Source of the DNA: Escherichia coli
Lineage (GTDB): Bacteria; Pseudomonadota; Gammaproteobacteria; Enterobacterales; Enterobacteriaceae
DNA: 64,000 nucleotides
Strand: one strand, 5' to 3'
NCBI RefSeq assembly: GCF_003334785.1
Contig: NZ_QOWV01000004.1
A program made the position numbers and the translations under genes. How positions within the stretch are numbered: position 1 is the first letter of the stretch; each line of letters starts with the position of its first letter. Positions 31,803 through 51,421 of the stretch are shown here, in pieces. The notes beneath the pieces were generated by a model. That model worked only from the letters and a program-made list of their open reading frames with translations, had not been told where the DNA came from and did no database searches.

Positions 31803-32476
31803 AATCTGATAGACCGCGCCTTGAAAAGAGGCCAAAGCCTGCCATTTTTAGCTCAATTCGGCGATGACCTGGATCAATCGTCCCGGCCTGCTTTTATCAA
31901 CTGCATAATCAATCAAAATTACCGAAATTTCATGCATAATCACATAAATCACTTTTGCTTATCTTGTGTCAGATTTTTTTATCTCCTGATGGATTTTAGG
32001 CAAAAACAGTAGCATGAAACGTCATTACCAATTAAGGCAGTATAAAATGCTGGTTTTGTCGTCAGTTCAAGGCAGGATAAGGGTTAACACACCTTTATGA
32101 CAGTCAGGAATTGACTGTTTCTCTAACGACTTCCCTTTTAGCCTTAAAGATAAAATCCATTTTAATTTCAGTCATTTAATAAAGAATTTTGCGCTAAAGC
32201 ACATTTCTGTACCAATAAGCTTGCCATTTGACCTGTATCAGCTTTCCCGATAAGTTGGAAATCCGCTGGAAGCTTTCTGGATGAGCAGCCTGCTCATCAT
32301 ATTTATGCAGTAATTGAGATCCCCTCTTCACCGTATTAACCGATGCGAAAAGGACAACAAGGGGGCGAATGCGAGGCGCGCGTATGACACGCAAACCCCG
32401 TCGCCACGCTCTTTCTGTGCCCGTGCGCAGCGGTTCGGAAGTGGGGTTCCCGCAGAGCCTGGGGGAGGTTCACGAT

Positions 32477-35400
32477 ATGTTGTACGATAAATCCCTTGAG
32501 AGGGATAACTGTGGTTTCGGCCTGATCGCCCACATAGAAGGCGAACCTAGCCACAAGGTAGTGCGTACTGCAATACACGCACTGGCCCGCATGCAGCACC
32601 GTGGCGCGATTCTCGCCGATGGTAAAACCGGCGACGGTTGCGGCTTGCTGTTACAAAAACCGGATCGCTTTTTTCGCATCGTTGCGCAGGAGCGCGGCTG
32701 GCGTTTAGCAAAAAACTACGCTGTCGGGATGCTCTTCCTGAATAAAGATCCTGAACTCGCCGCTGCCGCACGCCGCATCGTTGAAGAAGAACTGCAACGC
32801 GAAACCTTGTCGATTGTGGGCTGGCGTGATGTCCCCACTAACGAAGGCGTGCTGGGTGAAATCGCCCTCTCCTCTCTGCCACGCATTGAGCAAATTTTTG
32901 TGAACGCCCCGGCAGGCTGGCGTCCACGCGATATGGAGCGCCGTCTGTTTATCGCCCGCCGCCGCATTGAAAAGCGTCTCGAAGCCGACAAAGACTTCTA
33001 CGTCTGTAGCCTGTCGAATCTGGTGAACATCTATAAAGGTCTGTGTATGCCGACGGATCTGCCGCGCTTTTATCTGGATCTTGCGGACCTGCGTCTGGAA
33101 TCGGCCATTTGCCTGTTCCACCAGCGCTTCTCCACTAACACCGTACCGCGCTGGCCGCTGGCGCAACCGTTCCGCTATCTGGCGCATAACGGTGAAATCA
33201 ACACCATCACCGGTAACCGCCAATGGGCGCGTGCGCGTACTTATAAATTCCAGACACCGCTTATCCCTGACCTGCACGACGCCGCACCGTTCGTCAACGA
33301 AACCGGCTCTGACTCCAGTTCGATGGATAACATGCTGGAACTGCTGCTGGCAGGCGGGATGGATATCATCCGCGCCATGCGTCTATTAGTACCACCCGCC
33401 TGGCAGAACAACCCGGATATGGACCCGGAACTGCGTGCCTTCTTTGACTTTAACTCCATGCATATGGAGCCGTGGGATGGCCCGGCGGGCATCGTGATGT
33501 CCGACGGTCGTTTTGCCGCCTGTAACCTCGACCGTAACGGTCTGCGTCCGGCGCGCTACGTCATCACCAAAGATAAGCTCATCACCTGCGCCTCTGAAGT
33601 CGGTATCTGGGATTACCAGCCTGACGAAGTGGTCGAAAAAGGCCGCGTCGGGCCAGGCGAACTGATGGTTATCGACACCCGCAGTGGGCGTATTCTGCAC
33701 TCGGCAGAAACCGATGACGATCTGAAAAGCCGCCATCCATATAAAGAGTGGATGGAGAAAAACGTCCGCCGACTGGTACCGTTTGAAGATCTGCCCGATG
33801 AAGAAGTGGGTAGCCGCGAACTGGACGACGACACGCTTGCCAGCTACCAGAAACAGTTTAACTACAGCGCGGAAGAGCTGGACTCCGTAATTCGCGTACT
33901 GGGCGAAAACGGTCAGGAAGCGGTCGGTTCGATGGGCGATGATACCCCATTCGCCGTGCTCTCCAGTCAGCCGCGCATTATTTACGACTACTTCCGCCAG
34001 CAGTTTGCCCAGGTGACTAACCCGCCAATCGACCCGCTGCGTGAAGCGCATGTTATGTCGCTCGCCACCAGTATCGGTCGTGAAATGAACGTCTTTTGCG
34101 AAGCAGAGGGCCAGGCGCACCGTTTAAGCTTTAAATCGCCGATTCTGCTCTACTCCGATTTCAAACAGCTCACGACGATGAAAGAGGAGCACTACCGCGC
34201 AGATACGCTGGATATCACCTTTGACGTCACTAAAACCACGCTCGAAGCGACAGTCAAAGAGCTGTGCGACAAAGCCGAAAAAATGGTACGTAGCGGCACC
34301 GTGCTGCTGGTGCTCTCCGACCGGAATATCGCTAAAGATCGCCTGCCGGTTCCAGCCCCGATGGCGGTTGGCGCGATCCAGACCCGTCTGGTCGATCAAA
34401 GCCTGCGTTGCGATGCCAACATCATCGTCGAAACCGCCAGCGCCCGCGATCCGCACCACTTCGCCGTGTTGCTGGGCTTCGGCGCGACGGCTATTTATCC
34501 ATACCTTGCCTATGAAACGCTGGGCCGCCTGGTAGACACCCATGCGATTGCCAAAGATTATCGTACCGTGATGCTCAACTACCGTAACGGCATCAACAAA
34601 GGCTTGTACAAAATCATGTCCAAAATGGGCATCTCCACCATCGCCTCTTACCGCTGCTCGAAACTGTTTGAAGCGGTCGGTCTACACGATGATGTAGTGG
34701 GCCTGTGCTTCCAGGGGGCGGTCAGCCGCATTGGTGGAGCAAGCTTTGAAGACTTCCAGCAGGATCTGCTGAATCTGTCGAAACGTGCCTGGCTGGCGCG
34801 TAAGCCCATCAGCCAGGGCGGTCTGCTGAAATACGTCCACGGCGGCGAATACCACGCCTACAACCCGGACGTGGTGCGCACGCTGCAACAAGCGGTACAA
34901 AGCGGCGAGTACAGCGACTATCAGGAATACGCGAAGCTGGTTAATGAGCGTCCGGCAACCACGCTGCGCGATCTGCTGGCAATTACGCCGGGTGAAAACG
35001 CGGTCAACATTGCTGATGTTGAACCGGCAAGCGAACTGTTTAAACGCTTTGATACCGCCGCGATGTCTATCGGCGCGTTAAGCCCGGAAGCCCACGAGGC
35101 GCTGGCGGAAGCGATGAACAGCATCGGCGGTAATTCGAACTCCGGTGAAGGCGGCGAAGACCCGGCGCGCTACGGCACCAACAAAGTGTCGCGCATCAAG
35201 CAGGTGGCTTCCGGTCGCTTTGGGGTTACTCCGGCGTATCTGGTCAATGCCGACGTCATTCAGATTAAAGTCGCCCAGGGCGCGAAGCCAGGCGAAGGCG
35301 GTCAGTTGCCGGGTGATAAAGTCACGCCTTACATCGCCAAACTGCGCTATTCGGTGCCCGGAGTGACGCTGATCTCCCCGCCGCCGCACCACGATATCTA

Positions 35401-36937
35401 CTCTATCGAGGACTTAGCGCAGCTCATTTTCGACCTCAAGCAGGTTAACCCGAAAGCGATGATCTCCGTGAAGCTGGTTTCCGAACCGGGAGTAGGCACC
35501 ATCGCGACTGGCGTGGCAAAAGCTTATGCGGACTTGATCACCATCGCAGGCTATGACGGCGGCACCGGCGCAAGTCCGCTTTCATCGGTGAAATACGCAG
35601 GCTGTCCGTGGGAGCTGGGGCTTGTTGAAACCCAGCAGGCGCTGGTTGCTAACGGCTTGCGTCACAAGATCCGTTTGCAGGTCGATGGCGGCCTGAAAAC
35701 GGGTGTCGATATCATCAAGGCGGCGATTCTCGGCGCAGAAAGCTTCGGCTTCGGCACTGGCCCGATGGTGGCGCTCGGCTGTAAATATCTACGTATTTGC
35801 CATCTGAACAACTGCGCAACGGGTGTAGCAACTCAGGATGACAAACTGCGTAAGAACCACTATCACGGCCTGCCATTCAAGGTGACGAATTACTTTGAGT
35901 TTATCGCCCGTGAAACCCGCGAGCTGATGGCACAGCTTGGCGTAACACGTCTGGTGGATCTGATTGGTCGCACCGACCTGCTGAAAGAGCTGGACGGTTT
36001 CACCGCCAAACAGCAGAAGCTGGCGCTGTCGAAGCTGCTGGAGACTGCCGAACCGCATCCAGGTAAGGCACTCTACTGCACCGAAAACAACCCGCCGTTT
36101 GATAACGGCCTGCTGAACGCGCAGTTGCTGCAACAGGCGAAACCGTTTGTCGATGAGCGCCAGAGCAAAACCTTCTGGTTCGATATTCGCAACACCGACC
36201 GTTCTGTCGGCGCGTCGCTTTCAGGCTATATCGCCCAGACGCACGGCGATCAGGGGCTGGCAGCCGATCCTATCAAAGCGTACTTCAACGGCACCGCAGG
36301 CCAGAGCTTCGGCGTGTGGAACGCGGGCGGCGTGGAACTGTACCTGACCGGTGATGCCAACGACTATGTCGGTAAAGGCATGGCGGGCGGCTTAATCGCC
36401 ATTCGTCCTCCGGTTGGTTCCGCCTTCCGCAGCCATGAAGCAAGCATTATCGGCAACACCTGCCTGTATGGCGCGACCGGTGGTCGTCTGTATGCCGCAG
36501 GCCGCGCGGGTGAACGTTTCGGCGTGCGTAACTCCGGTGCTATCACCGTGGTAGAAGGCATTGGCGACAACGGTTGTGAATATATGACGGGTGGTATCGT
36601 CTGCATTCTGGGTAAAACCGGCGTTAACTTCGGTGCGGGCATGACCGGCGGTTTCGCTTACGTTCTCGATGAAAGCGGCGATTTCCGCAAACGCGTTAAC
36701 CCGGAACTGGTCGAGGTCTTAAGCGTTGACGCTCTGGCGATCCATGAAGAGCATCTGCGTGGTCTTATCACCGAGCATGTGCAGCATACCGGCTCTCAGC
36801 GCGGTGAAGAGATTCTGGCGAACTGGTCAACCTTCGCCACTAAATTTGCGCTGGTTAAACCGAAGTCCAGTGATGTAAAAGCACTGCTGGGTCACCGTAG
36901 TCGTAGCGCAGCTGAGTTGCGCGTGCAGGCGCAGTAA
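32477..36937 (+). CDS. gltB: Glutamate synthase (NADPH) large subunit
   Basis: 1486 aa from ATG ([26 protein letters not shown]...); track ORF extends 36 codons upstream to 32369. Confidence 0.96.
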
Positions 36938-38368
<1,431 letters not shown>

Positions 38369-38381
38369 GCGAGGTAACAAT

Positions 38382-38409
38382 GAATTCGCCAGACTGTGTC
38401 TGGCGAATC
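38382..38409. repeat. Palindromic unit (GAATTCGCCAGAC-TGT-GTCTGGCGAATC), 13 nt after the gltD stop
   Basis: 12-13 bp perfect inverted arms with 3-nt centre; same family as the units in and after yhcG. Confidence 0.8.
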
Positions 38410-38927
38410 AAATTACTGACGAAGTGCGCGTTGTTTTCTGGCAAATGCGGCATGAGCGTTTGACCTTTCCTATAATAGGGATAATTTTCAATAAATTGTG
38501 CTTTGTTCACCAAGTCTGATGAGTGAAGCACATCAAGCAATTTCTCATTTACAATCCGTCTCAATTACTTGTTAACACCTCTGACAATACCGATTCTGCA
38601 AGCTATTCAGTCTTTTCATTCCATGTAAATTGTCTCGATATTAATATACAAAATATGAATATAAAAAACCAATATATTATCCTTAATTATCTATATATTT
38701 TCCTATTTTTCAGCGCAAACATTCATGTAATGAATAATTATCACCACAAACCACCTCACCAGCACCTTATTATTCACATGATCGTAACTATAAAATTCAT
38801 TAAATAAATACATCCCAGCAAGTTGGCTATTTCTGAACGAGTTATTTATTTACATTCACAAACAGATATATATACTGCTTCAGCTTTTTATTTTAAAAAA
38901 TAAATTTGTTATTAAGGATATGTTCAT

Positions 38928-39692
38928 ATGTTTTTCAAAAAGAACCTCACAACAGCTGCTATTTGTGCAGCACTTTCTGTTGCAGCATTCAGTGCCATGG
39001 CAACAGATTCAACTGATACAGAATTAACTATCATCGGCGAGTATACCCCTGGTGCATGTACCCCAGTTGTTACGGGCGGCGGCATTGTTGACTATGGGAA
39101 ACATCATAACAGTGCGCTGAATCCGACCGGTAAAAGTAATAAACTGGTTCAACTGGGCCGCAAAAACAGCACATTAAATATAACCTGCACAGCACCAACG
39201 CTAATTGCTGTAACCTCCAAGGATAACCGTCAGTCGACCATTGTAGCGTTAAACGACACATCCTATATTGAAAAAGCTTATGATACTCTCGTAGATATGA
39301 AGGGAACGAAAAACGCCTTTGGTTTAGGTTCTGCGCCTAATGGACAAAAAATTGGCGCTGCATCCATTGGTATTGACAGGTCTAATGGTGGGATTCACGC
39401 GGCGGACGATACAGGTGAAATTCCTGTCGACCTGATTCAAACTGACCACTGGTCAGCAGCGACCCCCACATGGAAAGCCTCATCTAATGGCGCATTCTGC
39501 TCGCTGACAAGTTGCTCAGCAATCGAGCGCGGTTATTCTGTTGCAAAAACAGGGGAACTGACACCTGTTGCCATTACAGCGGTCACCTTCCCGTTACTGA
39601 TTGATGCTGCGGTAAATGACAATACTATTCTTGGTTCTGATGAAACGATCAAACTGGATGGTAACGTCACTATCAGCGTTCAGTATTTATAA
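38928..39692 (+). CDS. gltF: GltF, periplasmic fimbrial-subunit-like protein (DUF1120 family)
   Basis: 254 aa; signal peptide MFFKKNLTTAAICAALSVAAFSAMA; C-terminal ...KLDGNVTISVQYL shared with yhcF. Confidence 0.9.
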   Translation: MFFKKNLTTAAICAALSVAAFSAMATDSTDTELTIIGEYTPGACTPVVTGGGIVDYGKHHNSALNPTGKSNKLVQLGRKNSTLNITCTAPTLIAVTSKDNRQSTIVALNDTSYIEKAYDTLVDMKGTKNAFGLGSAPNGQKIGAASIGIDRSNGGIHAADDTGEIPVDLIQTDHWSAATPTWKASSNGAFCSLTSCSAIERGYSVAKTGELTPVAITAVTFPLLIDAAVNDNTILGSDETIKLDGNVTISVQYL

Positions 39693-39863
39693 GAACTTGT
39701 AATACAGTTTTTATTTTTACGCATTAACCAGTTAGCTATAACTCGGACAGATTATGCCCTATGACATGGTCTGTCTTAATCAATCTCATCGCAAACAGTG
39801 CATAACATATATTAACAATATGTTTCTGCGTTATTTATCATTATTACAGGAGTTTTAATTTAA

Positions 39864-40538
39864 ATGCTCAGACACATTACATTCACTGTATTTATAACAA
39901 CATCAATGAATACCTTAGCCACAGGGATGGTTCCTGAAACATCAGTATTGCTGGTTGATGAAAAGCGTGGTGAAGCTAGTATTAATATTAAGAATACAGA
40001 TGATCATCCTTCATTGCTTTACACCACCATTGTTGATTTGCCTGAAAGCAATAAATCAATTCGTTTAATCCCGACTCAGCCCGTTATTCGTGTTGAAGCC
40101 GGTCAAGTACAACAGGTTCGATTTTTACTTCAGGCGACTGTTCCTCTGCAATCAGAAGAGCTGAAACGCGTAACGTTCGAAGGTATTCCACCAAAAGATG
40201 ACAAGAGCAGCAGAGTTACTGTTTCAATTCGTCAGGATCTACCTGTACTGATCCACCCGGCTTCCCTGCCGGAAGAGCGAGAGACCTGGAAATTCCTGGA
40301 ATGGCGTAAAAATGGCGACCAAATTGAGATTAGCAACCCCAGTAATTATGTCGTTCGTATGACCTTACAATTTAAAACGCTCCCTTCAGGAAAAACGGGG
40401 GCTATAAATAAGACCTATTTTCTACCACACACCAGTACAACTACTGCATTAACAAACGCTACGGATACAAAAGTCGAGTTTTACCCAGCCAGCCGATATG
40501 GTTATCGCGGTAATAAATATGTCACTGACTTAAAATAA
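39864..40538 (+). CDS. yhcA: Fimbrial periplasmic chaperone (PapD-like)
   Basis: 224 aa; MLRHITFTVFITTSMNTLATGMVPETSVLLVDEKRGEASINIKNTDD... Confidence 0.9.
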   Translation: MLRHITFTVFITTSMNTLATGMVPETSVLLVDEKRGEASINIKNTDDHPSLLYTTIVDLPESNKSIRLIPTQPVIRVEAGQVQQVRFLLQATVPLQSEELKRVTFEGIPPKDDKSSRVTVSIRQDLPVLIHPASLPEERETWKFLEWRKNGDQIEISNPSNYVVRMTLQFKTLPSGKTGAINKTYFLPHTSTTTALTNATDTKVEFYPASRYGYRGNKYVTDLK

Positions 40539-40558
40539 CTTTGCCTGGAGCGACAAGG

Positions 40559-42940
40559 ATGTTAAAAAAAACGTTACTGGCCTACACCATTGGTTTTGCC
40601 TTTTCTCCCCCAGCCAATGCAGATGGTATAGAGATTGCCGCTGTTGATTTTGATCGGGAAACATTAAAATCACTAGGTGTAGATCCTAATATATCGCATT
40701 ATTTTTCCCGTTCAGCCCGTTTTTTGCCAGGTGAATATTCACTGATAGTATCAGTAAATGGCGAAAAAAAAGGCAACATTGCTACGCGCTTTGATGAAAA
40801 TGGCGACATTTGTCTTGATCAGGCATTTCTGCAACAAGCCGGTTTAAAAATTCCTTCTGAAGAAAAAAATGGCTGTTACGACTATATATTGTCCTACCCG
40901 GGTACCACAATCACACCATTACCTAACCAGGAAGCGTTAGATATTATCGTTTCACCACAGGCGATCATTCCCATAGGGTTGGATCTCACAAACGCAGCAA
41001 CTGGTGGAACAGCTGCGCTGCTAAACTACTCTCTGATGAGCAGCCGTGCAGAATTTTCTAATGGGAGTTCGGACTACTCCCAGGCTGCACTTGAAGGCGG
41101 GATTAATATTAATGACTGGATGTTACGCAGCCATCAGTTCCTTACACAAACAAATGGCACATTCAGTAACCAGAACTCGTCAACCTACCTTCAACGTACC
41201 TTTACAGATCTTAAAACACTCATGCGAGCAGGTGAAGTTAACCTCAATAATAGCGTGTTGGAAGGAGCCAGTATTTACGGTATCGAAATCGCACCGGACA
41301 ACGCATTGCAAACCAGCGGCAATGGTGTGCAAGTTACTGGTATAGCCAACACCTCTCAGGCTCGTGTCGAGATTCGTCAACAAGGAGTTTTAATTCATTC
41401 CATTCTGGTTCCTGCGGGCGCATTCACTATCCCTGATGTACCTGTTCGCAATGGTAATAGTGATCTTAATGTCACCGTTGTCGAAACAGACGGTAGTTCG
41501 CACAACTATATTGTTCCCTCCACCCTGTTTAATCAGCATGTAGAAAGCTTCCAGGGTTATCGCTTCGCGATAGGGCGGGTAGACGATGACTATGACGAAT
41601 CACCTTGGGTAATTAGTGCATCGAGCGGATGGAATCTGACACGCTGGAGTGCAATGAACGGCGGCGTTATCGTAGCAGAAAATTATCAGGCGGCATCAAT
41701 CCGGTCGAGTCTGGTTCCCCTGCCCGATTTAACAGTGAGCAGCCAAATTAGTACATCGCAGGATACGAAAGACTCACTGCAAGGACAGAAATATCGTCTT
41801 GACGCGAACTACAATCTCCCATTTTCACTTGGGCTAACAACCAGCCTCACTCGATCTGATCGCCATTATCGCGAACTGTCTGAAGCGATTGATGATGATT
41901 ATACCGATCCGACTAAAAGCACTTATGCGCTTGGTTTAAACTGGTCTAACTCCATTCTGGGTGGTTTCAACATCAGTGGCTATAAAACATATAGTTACGA
42001 CGGTGACAATGACTCAAGCAACCTTAATATTAACTGGAACAAAGCGTTCAAACACGCCACGGTTTCCGTCAACTGGCAGCATCAACTTAGTGCTTCAGAA
42101 AATAATGAAGACGATGGTGATCTGTTCTACGTCAACATCAGTATTCCATTTGGCAGATCAAACACCGCCACACTGTATACTCGCCATGACGATCATAAAA
42201 CCCACTATGGTACTGGTGTCATGGGAGTCGTCTCAGATGAGATGTCCTACTATGTGAATGCTGAACGAGATCACGACGAACGTGAAACGAGCTTGAACGG
42301 CAGTATCAGTTCCAATCTCCATTACACCCAAGTCAGCCTTGCCGCAGGAGCAAGCGGCAGTGATAGCCGTACTTACAACGGTACGATGTCAGGTGGTATT
42401 GCCGTACATGATCAGGGAGTGACCTTTTCACCGTGGACTATCAATGACACTTTCGCCATCGCAAAAATGGATAACAATATTGCAGGTGTCAGAATTACAT
42501 CTCAGGCAGGCCCAGTATGGACAGATTTTCGGGGTAATGCCGTCATTCCATCAATCCAGCCGTGGCGAACATCAGGAGTTGAGATCGATACCGCCAGCTT
42601 GCCAAAAAATGTCGATATCGGTAACGGCACAAAAATGATCAAACAAGGCCGTGGTGCAGTAGGGAAAGTCGGATTCAGTGCGATAACACAACGCCGTGCA
42701 TTACTCAATATCACACTTTCCGACGGCAAAAAACTGCCCAGAGGCGTTGCGATTGAAGATAGTGAAGGCAACTATCTGACAACATCAGTGGATGACGGTG
42801 TTGTATTCCTCAATAACATCAAACCGGACATGGTGCTAGATATAAAAGATGAGCAGCAATCATGCCGTATTCACCTTACATTCCCAGAAGATGCACCAAA
42901 AGATGTGTTCTATGAGACAGCAACAGGAGAGTGCCAATGA
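40559..42940 (+). CDS. yhcD: Fimbrial outer membrane usher
   Basis: 793 aa from ATG (MLKKTLLAYTIGFAFSPPANA...); C-terminal Cys pair. Confidence 0.9.
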   Translation: MLKKTLLAYTIGFAFSPPANADGIEIAAVDFDRETLKSLGVDPNISHYFSRSARFLPGEYSLIVSVNGEKKGNIATRFDENGDICLDQAFLQQAGLKIPSEEKNGCYDYILSYPGTTITPLPNQEALDIIVSPQAIIPIGLDLTNAATGGTAALLNYSLMSSRAEFSNGSSDYSQAALEGGININDWMLRSHQFLTQTNGTFSNQNSSTYLQRTFTDLKTLMRAGEVNLNNSVLEGASIYGIEIAPDNALQTSGNGVQVTGIANTSQARVEIRQQGVLIHSILVPAGAFTIPDVPVRNGNSDLNVTVVETDGSSHNYIVPSTLFNQHVESFQGYRFAIGRVDDDYDESPWVISASSGWNLTRWSAMNGGVIVAENYQAASIRSSLVPLPDLTVSSQISTSQDTKDSLQGQKYRLDANYNLPFSLGLTTSLTRSDRHYRELSEAIDDDYTDPTKSTYALGLNWSNSILGGFNISGYKTYSYDGDNDSSNLNINWNKAFKHATVSVNWQHQLSASENNEDDGDLFYVNISIPFGRSNTATLYTRHDDHKTHYGTGVMGVVSDEMSYYVNAERDHDERETSLNGSISSNLHYTQVSLAAGASGSDSRTYNGTMSGGIAVHDQGVTFSPWTINDTFAIAKMDNNIAGVRITSQAGPVWTDFRGNAVIPSIQPWRTSGVEIDTASLPKNVDIGNGTKMIKQGRGAVGKVGFSAITQRRALLNITLSDGKKLPRGVAIEDSEGNYLTTSVDDGVVFLNNIKPDMVLDIKDEQQSCRIHLTFPEDAPKDVFYETATGECQ

Positions 42941-43482
42941 AACGGATAATAACAGGATGCCTGCTGCTGAACTTCGCCATGGCCGCTCAGGCAGAGTGTA
43001 ATATCTCCAGTAGCATACAAAATATCGACTATGGCAAACGAAGTGCTGCCATGCGCCAAGTTGACCGGGGTAAAACAACACAATTAGCAGACAGAACAAT
43101 CACGCTGGTAATGCAATGCGATCAGGACGCTCATATTCGTGTTCAGTTGAATACCGCTAATATTTCCAACAACGGATTTGGATTTGGCCCGAATGGTTCA
43201 TTAAATCTGATCGCCAGCGATGCATTTTCAGGTAGTAACAATCTCGACCTGGCGTTAGCCAGTGGCAAAAATGACAATCCGGGCAGCACAGGAACAGCAT
43301 CAATTAGTACTTCCCCCAATAATTGGCTGGTGTTTATGCAAAATGGTCAAGAAGTGGTAATTGATAGCGGTAAAAGCGTTAGCCTCACACTGACAATGGC
43401 TCCAGCTTTTAAGGATGAAGGGGAACTAACCGACATGACAGATATTACAGGCAATCTGACGGTCCTGGTGGAGGCAAAATGA
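42937..43482 (+). CDS. yhcE: Putative fimbrial subunit YhcE (DUF1120-like), apparently intact
   Basis: 181 aa from ATG overlapping the yhcD stop (ATGA); signal peptide MKRIITGCLLLNFAMAAQA; no insertion sequence in or near the ORF. Confidence 0.8.
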   Translation: MKRIITGCLLLNFAMAAQAECNISSSIQNIDYGKRSAAMRQVDRGKTTQLADRTITLVMQCDQDAHIRVQLNTANISNNGFGFGPNGSLNLIASDAFSGSNNLDLALASGKNDNPGSTGTASISTSPNNWLVFMQNGQEVVIDSGKSVSLTLTMAPAFKDEGELTDMTDITGNLTVLVEAK

Positions 43483-44195
43483 ACAATGTAAAATTACTGA
43501 TTGCCGGAAGTGCCTTTTTTGCCATGTCAGCGCAAGCCGCTGATAGAGTATCAATTGACGTTAAGGTGACTCTGGAAGCTGCAGCTTGTACTCCAATACT
43601 AAGCAACGGCGGAGTTGTTAACTTCGGTAGTCATTCAGTCAATAGACTTTCAACGCAGCACTACACACAGATTGGAACACGTAATATTAATATGACTATA
43701 ACTTGCGAATCCGCTACCGGCATTGCGATTACCGCTCGTGATACACGAATGGATAGTATGACCACCGGAAAAGATAGTGGGGGTCAGAGTGGTGTAAAAT
43801 ATACCTTAAATGGCGGAGGTTATATTAGCCAGACAACGCGCTTATTCGGCTTAGGGAAAACAAAAGATAATAAAAATATCGGTAGTTATGCCGTGTTAAT
43901 TGATAGCAACAACATTAGTGCCAGCAATGGTAGCCAGACGTTAGCTGTATCAATAGCAGGTGCAGATGCCGTCATAACAGGGCAAAAAAGAGCATGGCAA
44001 ACGCTCACCGCTTATCCGCTTGCAGTCGATCAAAGCTATTATTACACCTTTGTAAAACCAGGTGAAACAACCCCAACTCCTGTAACGAACGCCATTATAC
44101 CGCTTCAGGTGAGCGCATCTATCGCGAATGATTTAGGCGGTTCAGAAAAAATCGAACTTGATGGGAAAGCTGTGATAAGCGTAGTCTACTTGTGA
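43479..44195 (+). CDS. yhcF: Putative fimbrial subunit YhcF (DUF1120 family)
   Basis: 238 aa; signal peptide MNNVKLLIAGSAFFAMSAQA; C-terminal ...ELDGKAVISVVYL paralogous to gltF. Confidence 0.85.
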   Translation: MNNVKLLIAGSAFFAMSAQAADRVSIDVKVTLEAAACTPILSNGGVVNFGSHSVNRLSTQHYTQIGTRNINMTITCESATGIAITARDTRMDSMTTGKDSGGQSGVKYTLNGGGYISQTTRLFGLGKTKDNKNIGSYAVLIDSNNISASNGSQTLAVSIAGADAVITGQKRAWQTLTAYPLAVDQSYYYTFVKPGETTPTPVTNAIIPLQVSASIANDLGGSEKIELDGKAVISVVYL

Positions 44196-44379: not shown

Positions 44380-45507
44380 ATGGAATCGCTCTCAGAAGGA
44401 ACCACAGCAGGCTACCAGCAAATCCACGACGGTATTATTCATCTGGTCGATAGCGCCCGGACGGAAACGGTACGTAGCGTTAACGCGTTAATGACCGCGA
44501 CGTACCAGGAAATTGGCCGACGAATTGTCGAATTTGAACAAGGTGGCGAGGCCAGGGCTGCGTATGGTGCGCAGCTAATCAAGCGACTATCAAAGGATTT
44601 ATGTCTAAGGTATAAGCGTGGGTTCTCTGCAAAAAACTTACGCCAAATGAGGCTTTTTTACCTCTTTTTTCAACATGTTGAAATTCGCCAGACAATGTCT
44701 GGCGAATTAACACCATTGGGAATTCCGCAGACACCGTCTGCAGAATTCCCATCGGCAAAGATTTGGCAGACGCTGTCTGCCAAATCTTTCCCCTTGCCCA
44801 GGTCCACCTACGTCCGTTTACTTTCCGTTAAAAACGCTGACGCCCGCAGCTTTTATGAAAAAGAGACGCTCCGCTGTGGCTGGTCTGTTCGCCAGCTAGA
44901 GCGGCAAATTGCGACCCAGTTTTATGAGCGGACACTACTGTCACATGACAAATCAGCCATGCTGCAACAACACGCTCCTGCCGAGACGCATATTCTTCCG
45001 CAACAGGCGATACGCGATCCCTTTGTGCTCGAATTTCTGGAATTGAAAGATGAATATTCAGAATCCGATTTTGAGGAGGCGCTGATCAACCACCTGATGG
45101 ATTTCATGCTGGAACTTGGGGATGATTTTGCCTTTGTTGGTCGGCAGCGAAGGTTACGCATTGATGACAACTGGTTTCGTGTCGATCTGCTGTTTTTCCA
45201 CCGCCGTTTACGCTGCCTGCTAATCGTCGATCTAAAAGTGGGCAAATTCAGCTATAGCGATGCCGGACAGATGAATATGTATCTCAACTACGCCAAAGAG
45301 CACTGGACGCTACCGGATGAAAATCCGCCCATCGGTCTGGTTCTCTGTGCAGAGAAAGGAGCCGGAGAAGCGCATTATGCTCTGGCAGGTTTGCCTAACA
45401 CCGTTCTGGCAAGCGAATATAAGATGCAACTACCTGATGAGAAACGACTCGCAGATGAACTCGTTCGAACACAGGCGGTGCTAGAGGAAGGCTATAGACG
45501 CCGTTAA
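44380..45507 (+). CDS. yhcG: YhcG, DUF1016-family protein with PD-(D/E)xK nuclease-like C-terminal region
   Basis: 375 aa; MESLSEGTTAGYQQIHDGIIHLVDSARTE...; C-terminal ...RVDLLFFHRRLRCLLIVDLKVGKF... resembles a D...(D/E)xK core; contains three in-frame palindromic repeat units. Confidence 0.85.
   Translation: MESLSEGTTAGYQQIHDGIIHLVDSARTETVRSVNALMTATYQEIGRRIVEFEQGGEARAAYGAQLIKRLSKDLCLRYKRGFSAKNLRQMRLFYLFFQHVEIRQTMSGELTPLGIPQTPSAEFPSAKIWQTLSAKSFPLPRSTYVRLLSVKNADARSFYEKETLRCGWSVRQLERQIATQFYERTLLSHDKSAMLQQHAPAETHILPQQAIRDPFVLEFLELKDEYSESDFEEALINHLMDFMLELGDDFAFVGRQRRLRIDDNWFRVDLLFFHRRLRCLLIVDLKVGKFSYSDAGQMNMYLNYAKEHWTLPDENPPIGLVLCAEKGAGEAHYALAGLPNTVLASEYKMQLPDEKRLADELVRTQAVLEEGYRRR
44682..44787. 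repeat. Three tandem 27-29 bp palindromic units (CAGAC-N3-GTCTG core) inside the yhcG coding sequence
   Basis: Units at 44682-44708, 44720-44748 and 44759-44787 with 38-39 bp periodicity; 12-13 bp inverted arms, two perfect and one with a single mismatch. Confidence 0.8.
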
Positions 45508-45520
45508 TTTCAGCGGTTTC

Positions 45521-45548
45521 GAATTCTGCAGACAGTGTCTGCAGAATC
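45521..45548. repeat. Palindromic unit (GAATTCTGCAGAC-AGT-GTCTGCAGAATC), 13 nt after the yhcG stop
   Basis: Perfect inverted arms; same family as 38382-38409 and the intragenic yhcG units; lies between convergent yhcG and yhcH. Confidence 0.8.
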
Positions 45549-51042: not shown

Positions 51043-51421
51043 TCTGTAAGGTCAGTGTGATTAACATCATCAGTGACATCCTATCACAGGATTGAAAGTA
51101 GGGGAAAATGGCAGGGTTTTCTCTTTGTGCCTCATCATTACCATAATTAACGGAATAATTAACTATTGCGAAAAATTAATGTAACGCAGATAAAAACATC
51201 CCGTTTGAATTATTTATAAGACTATTCACGAGCATTATGAATATTATGAATGTGTTCTTACAAAATAATCATAAGCGCATATTTTTTAATGAAAAATCAC
51301 CTCACCTACAATTAAAAACACGACATCCGCACCATAAATAGCCTTGCAAAAAATATAACATCGTTGTTTTCAATCTGCCGTTTATGGGATTGACCGTTTT
51401 CTTTTGACACGGAGTTCAACA

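Follow-up and report, generated by a model that had tools for sequence, protein, structure and literature searches.

The AT-rich gltD-gltF spacer of Escherichia coli as the probable leader and left cassette junction of the yhc chaperone-usher operon

Cryptic chaperone-usher operons with H-NS-silenced promoters were reportedly described in Escherichia coli K-12 by Korea et al. in 2010 (cited in PMC5216030), and the yhc operon is said not to have been among those tested. Rho-dependent termination and the co-silencing of foreign DNA by Rho and H-NS are likewise said to have been described, by Cardinale in 2008 and Peters in 2012. The xenogeneic silencing of AT-rich acquired islands by H-NS goes back to three studies (Navarre, 2006; Lucchini, 2006; Oshima, 2006) as summarised in PMC3064808, where the mean H-NS tract is 1,686 bp, fimbrial biogenesis is enriched among H-NS-bound operons and long tracts are enriched for acquired A/T-rich DNA. 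The yhc genes are the beta-class chaperone-usher locus of E. coli, a locus confined to phylogroup A (K-12 included), with strains W, B and Crooks being without it (PMC5216030; PMC3032704).

Like the cryptic K-12 operons (ycb/elf, yad, yeh, sfm, yra, ybg and yfc), yhc has an AT-rich leader before its first subunit gene. It also shares with them little expression in the laboratory, a reported H-NS ChIP signal within the operon and membership of a class of operons enriched among H-NS targets. However, yhc is the only beta-class locus, its yhcE gene is interrupted by IS5 in K-12 (no IS5 is present in the yhcE studied here) and its leader adjoins a core operon which lies on the same strand and is highly expressed. 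In addition, the promoters of the other operons are described as H-NS-silenced, whereas that of yhc is a candidate for such control. In common with xenogeneically silenced islands, yhc differs in composition from its surroundings (a G+C of 0.29 for the leader and 0.44 for the operon, where the flanks have 0.56), is patchy within the species and has a divergence that is discordant with that of the flanks. Unlike such islands, it comes without an integrase, tRNA gene or mobility gene; integrase and tRNA genes were sought in and near the cassette in the ORF list and the RefSeq annotation.

The window, meaning here the whole 64 kb stretch of DNA that was analysed, has the gene order arcB-yhcC-gltB-gltD, after which come the spacer and gltF (Table 1). 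The spacer is 100% identical to that of E. coli K-12 MG1655 (NC_000913.3, 3,360,617-3,361,175), while gltD shows no base differences from this strain and gltF shows one. Pfam domains were found in the products of gltF (DUF1120), yhcA (PapD_N) and yhcD (PapC_N, Usher and PapC_C), and the AT-rich stretch thus immediately precedes the first structural gene of an operon with a PapD-like chaperone and an outer-membrane usher. The identity of the region as the leader of this fimbrial operon, bearing a predicted promoter, is well supported, and the locus is already known and of a known kind. Taken as a whole, the best explanation of the region is that it forms the leader of gltF-yhcADEF and also the left junction of the cassette with the core gene gltD. 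With the silencing and insulation proposed below included, this explanation is held with fairly good confidence.

Table 1. Features of the gltD-gltF spacer and its neighbourhood (positions in the window).
Feature	Position	Strand	Remarks
gltB	32369-36937		
gltD	36950-38368		
gltD-gltF spacer, non-coding	38369-38927		559 bp
Perfect palindrome, probably the gltD 3' hairpin	38382-38409	.	GAATTCGCCAGAC-TGT-GTCTGGCGAATC; 28 nt, just 3' of the gltD stop
E. coli-allele-specific segment	38410-38600	+	about 190 bp, G+C about 0.40; absent from other Escherichia leaders
GTG-initiated open frame, judged non-coding	38523-38807	+	94 codons
AT-rich core of gltF leader	38600-38927	+	about 42% three-way identity with other Escherichia yhc leaders
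Conserved block TTTTCCTATTTT	38698-38709	+	most conserved of the non-coding blocks; three Escherichia alleles agree at 12/12
Palindrome, candidate operator	38721-38735	.	ATTCAT-GTA-ATGAAT; ATTC-N7-GAAT kept in locus L018, approximately in L011
C-over-G stretch, candidate Rho-utilisation region	38737-38816	+	strongest on + strand of window; 23 C, 3 G in 80 nt
Conserved block ATTTATTTACA	38844-38854		ranks second in conservation among the non-coding blocks; includes the -35 hexamer
Predicted sigma-70 promoter of gltF-yhcADEF	38849-38876	+	-35 TTTACA 38849-38854, 16-nt spacer, -10 TATACT 38871-38876
IS1A target CACAAACAG	38857-38865	.	9 bp, duplicated in strain CFS3246
Shine-Dalgarno AAGGA	38914-38918	+	9 nt before gltF ATG (38928); kept in all Escherichia alleles
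gltF	38928-39692		followed by yhcA, yhcD, intact yhcE, yhcF, yhcG, nan operon
gltF-yhcA-yhcD-yhcE-yhcF, beta-class chaperone-usher operon	38928-44195	+	downstream of the leader; G+C 0.443
Second intergenic palindrome copy	45521-45548	.	GAATTCTGCAGAC-AGT-GTCTGCAGAATC; between the yhcG and nanQ stops

An earlier note on this DNA had described about 430 bp upstream of gltF as strongly AT-rich, and this is borne out by a sliding-window analysis of G+C. Positions 38500-38927 have a G+C of 0.290 (0.320 for the entire spacer) against a window mean of 0.509 (z about -4.5 for 428-bp windows, sd 0.049), and the minimum of the 64 kb (0.278, at 38517-38944) falls on the gltD-gltF spacer. The next-lowest region stands at 0.329, and all the 428-bp windows with a G+C as low as that of the stretch (0.17%) overlap it. 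Of the flanking genes, gltB (0.571) and gltD (0.562) are far richer in G+C than gltF (0.455). The change at the junction is abrupt (0.56 to 0.32), with the first 131 bp of the spacer (38369-38499) being moderately AT-rich at 0.42. TpA steps account for 11.0% of the AT-rich stretch as against 4.5% of the window, and the region therefore shows both low G+C over several hundred bp and TpA richness, two properties expected of DNA silenced by H-NS/StpA. The same note had called the stretch full of A/T tracts, which is correct as a count, there being 21 AnTm tracts of at least 4 nt or threefold the window average (7.5 +/- 3.8 per 428 bp). However, shuffled sequence of the same composition yields a similar number (19.3 +/- 3.1, P = 0.34), and the tracts are therefore a by-product of composition and add no signal. 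The curvature check, which used a home-made wedge model, gave a predicted peak of 20 degrees per turn near 38706. This exceeds the 99th percentile for the interval of 30-48 kb, but is moderate and ranks only eighth among the peaks of those 18 kb.

Alignment of the Escherichia leaders divides the E. coli spacer into three parts, namely the hairpin, a segment specific to E. coli and a core that is shared. The 54-nt context of the hairpin folds at -20.1 kcal/mol (z = -4.07), and the hairpin is conserved in an ST131 (B2) genome and in the other Escherichia loci L012, L013, and L018. For the E. coli-specific segment no origin could be recognised, tblastn and blastn searches with the neighbouring proteins and the whole window giving no gene remnant there; in the remnant search of the spacer only the palindrome was matched, to yhcG. 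The leader found no match in a plasmid collection (distant mode), and no Rfam family was detected over 37800-39500 at a permissive threshold. The shared core is proposed to be the region of H-NS/StpA nucleation and of regulation. Its TTTTCCTATTTT block coincides with the predicted curvature peak and is a candidate regulator or bending site, while the palindrome just downstream of that block might serve as an operator.

The predicted sigma-70 promoter agrees with the consensus at 10 of 12 positions, is the sole + strand match in the spacer and lies 52 bp before the gltF ATG, which would place the transcription start near 38883 (MG1655 ~3,361,131). Of the four other Escherichia loci examined, three (L012, L013, and L018) have kept it, and in these the -35 hexamer is invariant and the -10 hexamer reads TATACT or TACACT; the block is missing from L011, the most similar allele. 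Kluyvera and Enterobacter have a single comparable predicted promoter 77-83 bp upstream of the start codon. In all nine contexts inspected, with either gltD or sspB as the upstream neighbour, the first DUF1120 gene is preceded by a leader of 342-559 bp with a G+C of 0.26-0.32. As this AT-rich leader is kept in the homologous cassettes, the stretch is to be counted as part of the operon. When the E. coli leader is aligned with those of Kluyvera and Enterobacter, the result is noise, and the comparison with these genera is one of length, composition and promoter position only. The earlier note's reading of the stretch as a fimbrial promoter silenced by nucleoid proteins is consistent with these findings, though its support is indirect, with gltF heading a chaperone-usher operon behind a predicted and conserved promoter.

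A gltBDF operon was reportedly defined by Castano et al. in 1992 from polar insertions, and gltF is still given as its third gene in RegulonDB-derived lists and some papers. The spacer would then be a gap within an operon transcribed from the gltB promoter and would have no role as a promoter or in silencing. The two genes are indeed on the same strand, the gltD hairpin is not followed by a T-run and no intrinsic terminator was found in the spacer. Nevertheless, this account is considered unlikely. As many as 79% of the E. coli genomes bearing gltBD are without gltF, and in Kluyvera and Enterobacter the homologous operon is not downstream of gltD. The supposed operon would also contain 559 nt of untranslated RNA with a hairpin of -20 kcal/mol and the strongest C-over-G stretch of the window, and a predicted conserved promoter and a Shine-Dalgarno sequence lie directly upstream of gltF. 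The functional links of gltF are with the chaperone and usher downstream and not with glutamate synthase, and Goss et al. in 2001 are said to have doubted that it has any role in nitrogen metabolism. It is suggested that gltF be regarded as opening a dispensable and probably silenced beta-class cassette with a predicted promoter of its own, and not as part of the glutamate synthase operon, a point of little importance beyond correct annotation.

The C-over-G stretch is a candidate Rho-utilisation region for transcripts reading through from gltD. Such transcripts, coming from the strongly expressed gltBD genes, would meet the hairpin and then continue for some 500 nt without translation, in RNA rich in C and poor in G onto which Rho is likely to load, and the operon would thereby be insulated from gltBD. 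Transcripts of gltBD would in this way be plausible, if unproven, Rho substrates, which argues against the older gltBDF view. As in systems with Rho-dependent termination or Rho/H-NS co-silencing, there is a long untranslated stretch of C-rich and G-poor sequence past a stop codon and at the edge of AT-rich DNA; compared with those systems, the signature of the yhc leader is one of composition. Weaker equivalents of the C-over-G stretch are present in L011, L012, and L018. However, the leaders of Kluyvera and Enterobacter show no C-over-G bias, and for this reason the Rho part of the proposal is weak.

The distribution of the cassette was surveyed in 5,426 complete E. coli genomes, in which the 3' end of gltD is nearly universal (5,416). 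The complete spacer, counted as present at a coverage of at least 80%, was found in 1,149 genomes, and 1,143 have gltF, with an identity of at least 99% in almost every case, so that just 21% of the genomes have the gltF cassette. In 3,148 genomes the arrangement is gltD-183 bp-yhcG, with divergence starting two bases past the gltD stop, and about 946 have in common with the window only the first 40 bp past gltD; one of these that was inspected, an ST131 strain, has gltD with a single hairpin behind it, after which the end of nanQ follows. Alternative arrangements are seen in loci L002-L008, with alternative junctions in L002 and L006-L008. The gltF cassette is thus polymorphic in presence and absence between conserved flanks. 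Other Escherichia (L011-L014 and L018) encode relatives of GltF (56-78% identity) between gltD and nanQ, and in these loci gltD is 92-94% identical to that of the window and the operon about 70-74%. Along the locus, identity to these Escherichia falls from 0.92-0.97 in gltD to 0.16-0.65 just past the hairpin (~38400) and recovers at nanQ.

By direct comparison, the cassette polymorphism and this drop in identity uphold the further claim of the earlier note that the stretch marks the boundary of an acquired or variable segment. Its left edge at 38500 is reasonable for the AT-rich core, but the structural boundary lies about 90 bp further to the left, at the hairpin; this is the last sequence in common with genomes without the cassette, and for that reason the variable segment has its true left limit there. 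The identity profile is a mosaic, with L012 and L018 being nearer to the window in yhcE-yhcF and L011 nearer in gltF-yhcD. In Kluyvera and Enterobacter a homologous operon (GltF 48-49% identical) follows sspB and converges on gltD in the opposite orientation. Since the same site is used in other Escherichia and the cassette adjoins gltD in these two genera as well, it looks like a long-standing occupant of the gltD-sspB slot that can be exchanged and is frequently lost, and not a simple recent insertion. For the same reason, homologous recombination in the flanks is a likelier route of exchange than insertion at a specific site. No donor lineage was found in a search of genome contigs with YhcD, which gave only two 100% identical E. 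coli-like fragments, one in a Collinsella MAG and one in a Methylobacterium assembly, both likely to be contamination. Within E. coli the junction takes three alternative forms, other Escherichia have divergent alleles at the same site and IS1 has repeatedly mediated loss; the locus offers a tidy case of the turnover of a surface-structure cassette at a fixed chromosomal slot.

Another possibility is that the AT-rich stretch is neutral junction debris, made AT-rich by mutational bias and without regulation beyond a minimal promoter. The E. coli-specific segment is lineage-specific and of no recognisable origin, the three-way identity of the core is just 0.42, and insertions and deletions by IS1 are tolerated in the leader. 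However, the length and G+C of the leader have been maintained despite this turnover of sequence and next to different neighbours, and the core contains the discrete conserved TTTTCCTATTTT and ATTTATTTACA blocks. Only a small chance is therefore given to neutral debris, and the leader is preferred as a regulatory region belonging to the operon.

On that preferred reading, silencing of the leader and operon by H-NS is likely. It is suggested by the AT- and TpA-rich composition, the patchy distribution of the cassette, an H-NS mark in yhcA and the general findings on H-NS. The mark is MG1655 position 3,362,763, in yhcA and 1.6 kb downstream, which Table 1 of PMC10294691 places in a region bound by H-NS according to the Kahramanoglou ChIP-seq data; RNA counts given in the same publication are low (38 for yhcA and 425 for yhcD). 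The AT-rich, TpA-rich leader would nucleate H-NS (with StpA), from where a filament could spread across the promoter into the 44% G+C operon and keep it silent in laboratory conditions, as with the other cryptic K-12 chaperone-usher operons. The high-affinity H-NS motif TCGATAAATT (tCGATAAATT) is not enriched, its total for the window being 77 against 63 +/- 8 expected; near-matches occur at 38488 (one mismatch) and 38690 (two mismatches). An uncharacterised transcription factor has also been reported to act at gltF (PMC6237786), and control may therefore not be by H-NS alone. With precise coordinates now available, control by H-NS or Rho can be tested at what is the sole beta-class chaperone-usher locus of E. 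coli.

The two related 28-nt palindromes of Table 1, one past gltD and the other before nanQ, lie on either side of the segment that the inspected ST131 (B2) genome lacks, the second of them marking its right end. Among the matches listed, the palindrome is found either just past gltD or inside yhcG, a gene encoding a PDDEXK nuclease. It could be imagined that the palindrome is a substrate for recombination or cleavage which makes the gltD-nanQ slot a hotspot, with YhcG perhaps as the acting enzyme and the leader as a built-in silencer or insulator. If so, it is through the palindrome that yhc cassettes would be gained, lost and replaced by other alleles, and the leader would allow incoming alleles to be tolerated beside the highly expressed gltBD. 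This idea is regarded as a long shot.

It should also be mentioned that the palindrome, in the form GAATTC-NNCAGAC-NNN-GTCTGNN-GAATTC, recurs in yhcG as one to three in-frame 39-nt units. Membership of a dispersed REP-like family was considered for the 28-nt palindrome and rejected, as it occurs in one to four places per genome (median 2).

The GTG-initiated frame inside the AT-rich stretch has very little claim to encode a real 94-residue protein. It is somewhat longer than expected by chance (P about 0.015-0.06 in shuffles of like composition), and it stays open because the + strand has only 7.7% G, which removes TAG and TGA stops. However, its start is without a Shine-Dalgarno sequence, its G+C by codon position (0.36/0.17/0.35) differs from that of the neighbouring genes and its first 78 nt fall inside the E. 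coli-specific insert. The frame is kept in no homologous leader, with tblastn to these giving matches of 13-22 aa only (E >= 0.01), its product has no match in Pfam or NCBIfam, it is without annotation in RefSeq genomes and IS1 deletions cut it short in natural isolates. It had already been suspected of being a composition artefact, a view that can be confirmed, and the ORF should stay unannotated.

Finally, the leader resembles the fimS switch of type 1 fimbriae in having the predicted promoter of a fimbrial subunit gene between inverted repeats in AT-rich DNA (38678-38701 and 38897-38920; arms of 24 nt, 79% complementary, with a perfect 10-nt core TATCCTTAAT/ATTAAGGATA), but the notion that the promoter lies on an invertible phase-variation element can hardly be entertained and was rejected: no recombinase gene of the FimB/FimE type or otherwise is present in or beside the cassette, the repeats are imperfect and of a type expected in DNA with 29% G+C, the Shine-Dalgarno sequence falls partly within the right arm, and in all 1,149 genomes having it at a coverage of at least 80% the spacer is in one place and on one strand with no inverted orientation. 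All five partial matches inspected were IS1 deletions and not inversions. Among the full-length matches listed, all are single colinear pieces except that of strain CFS3246, in which an IS1A insertion separates the predicted -35 hexamer from the -10.

The AT-rich spacer between gltD and gltF is a repeated target of IS1, as found in comparison loci from other genomes (L003, L005, L004, L020, L021). Four distinct left junctions were identified in the spacer, all paired with a single common right junction within yhcG; these spacer-to-yhcG losses are nested IS1-mediated deletions, by which the entire yhc operon (gltF-yhcA-yhcD-yhcE-yhcF) is gone. Only a partial spacer is present in approximately 144 genomes of the E. 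coli survey. The spacer segment that is specific to E. coli also has a perfect TATAAT (38471-38476), 5 bp downstream of a TTGACC. These two elements are wrongly spaced to act as a promoter, a usable -35 element at 16-18 bp is lacking, and the promoter scan makes no call here.

Coordinates of palindrome copies, IS1 sites and low-G+C stretches
Feature	Position	Remark
Palindrome, intergenic copy	38382-38409	3′ of gltD
Palindrome, second intergenic copy	45521-45548	yhcG-nanQ gap
Palindrome units	44681-44709, 44720-44748, ~44759-44790	inside yhcG
IS1 deletion endpoints, left side	38450, ~38520, 38670, 38672	in spacer
Simple IS1A insertion, 9-bp duplication	38857-38865	within predicted gltF promoter
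Remaining low-G+C stretches of the window	51058-51485, 61798-62225, 60897-61324, 31893-32320	G+C 0.33-0.37

The gltD-nanQ locus possesses a locus-specific 28-nt palindrome with the consensus GAATTC-NNCAGAC-NNN-GTCTGNN-GAATTC, for which no occurrences are expected by chance. The differences between its two intergenic copies are compensatory stem changes. Within yhcG, which encodes a PDDEXK/DUF1016 protein, the palindrome recurs as three tandem in-frame 39-nt units encoding the peptides IRQTMSGEL, IPQTPSAEF and IWQTLSAKSF, and the O157 type of yhcG is 26 aa shorter, which corresponds to exactly two such units (2 x 39 nt). The palindrome is not dispersed, being found at one to four places per E. 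coli genome (median 2), and among the matches listed for E. coli genomes it lies either directly after gltD or inside yhcG.

The window is identical to K-12 MG1655 across gltD and the spacer, and gltF differs by a single base (39572). Despite this identity, the window is not K-12 MG1655, since its yhcE (42931-43482) is intact and without IS5. Other Escherichia (L011-L014, L018) have divergent full gltF-yhcF cassettes at the same gltD-nanQ site, with approximately 70-74% nucleotide identity and mosaic identity profiles, while gltD in these loci is 92-94% identical. In Kluyvera (L015) and Enterobacter (L016, L017), the operon has the opposite orientation to gltD and is placed after sspB, the Kluyvera operon having three tandem DUF1120 genes ahead of the chaperone gene. 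Fragments matching E. coli yhcD at 100% identity were also detected in a Collinsella sp. MAG, on a contig of 5 kb, and in a Methylobacterium organophilum assembly, on a contig of 249 bp (L009, L010); most likely, E. coli DNA has contaminated these assemblies.

A second very AT-rich gap (G+C 0.30) lies inside the operon, this being the gltF-yhcA spacer (39693-39863). In a laboratory evolution experiment, every sequenced clone was reported to have acquired an IS5 insertion in this spacer, for which no effect was identified (PMC8403718). Features reported within yhcA are a PhoB site from ChIP and an RpoH peak from SELEX. Among the remaining low-G+C stretches of the window, the last one tabulated is the known yhcC-gltB regulatory region.
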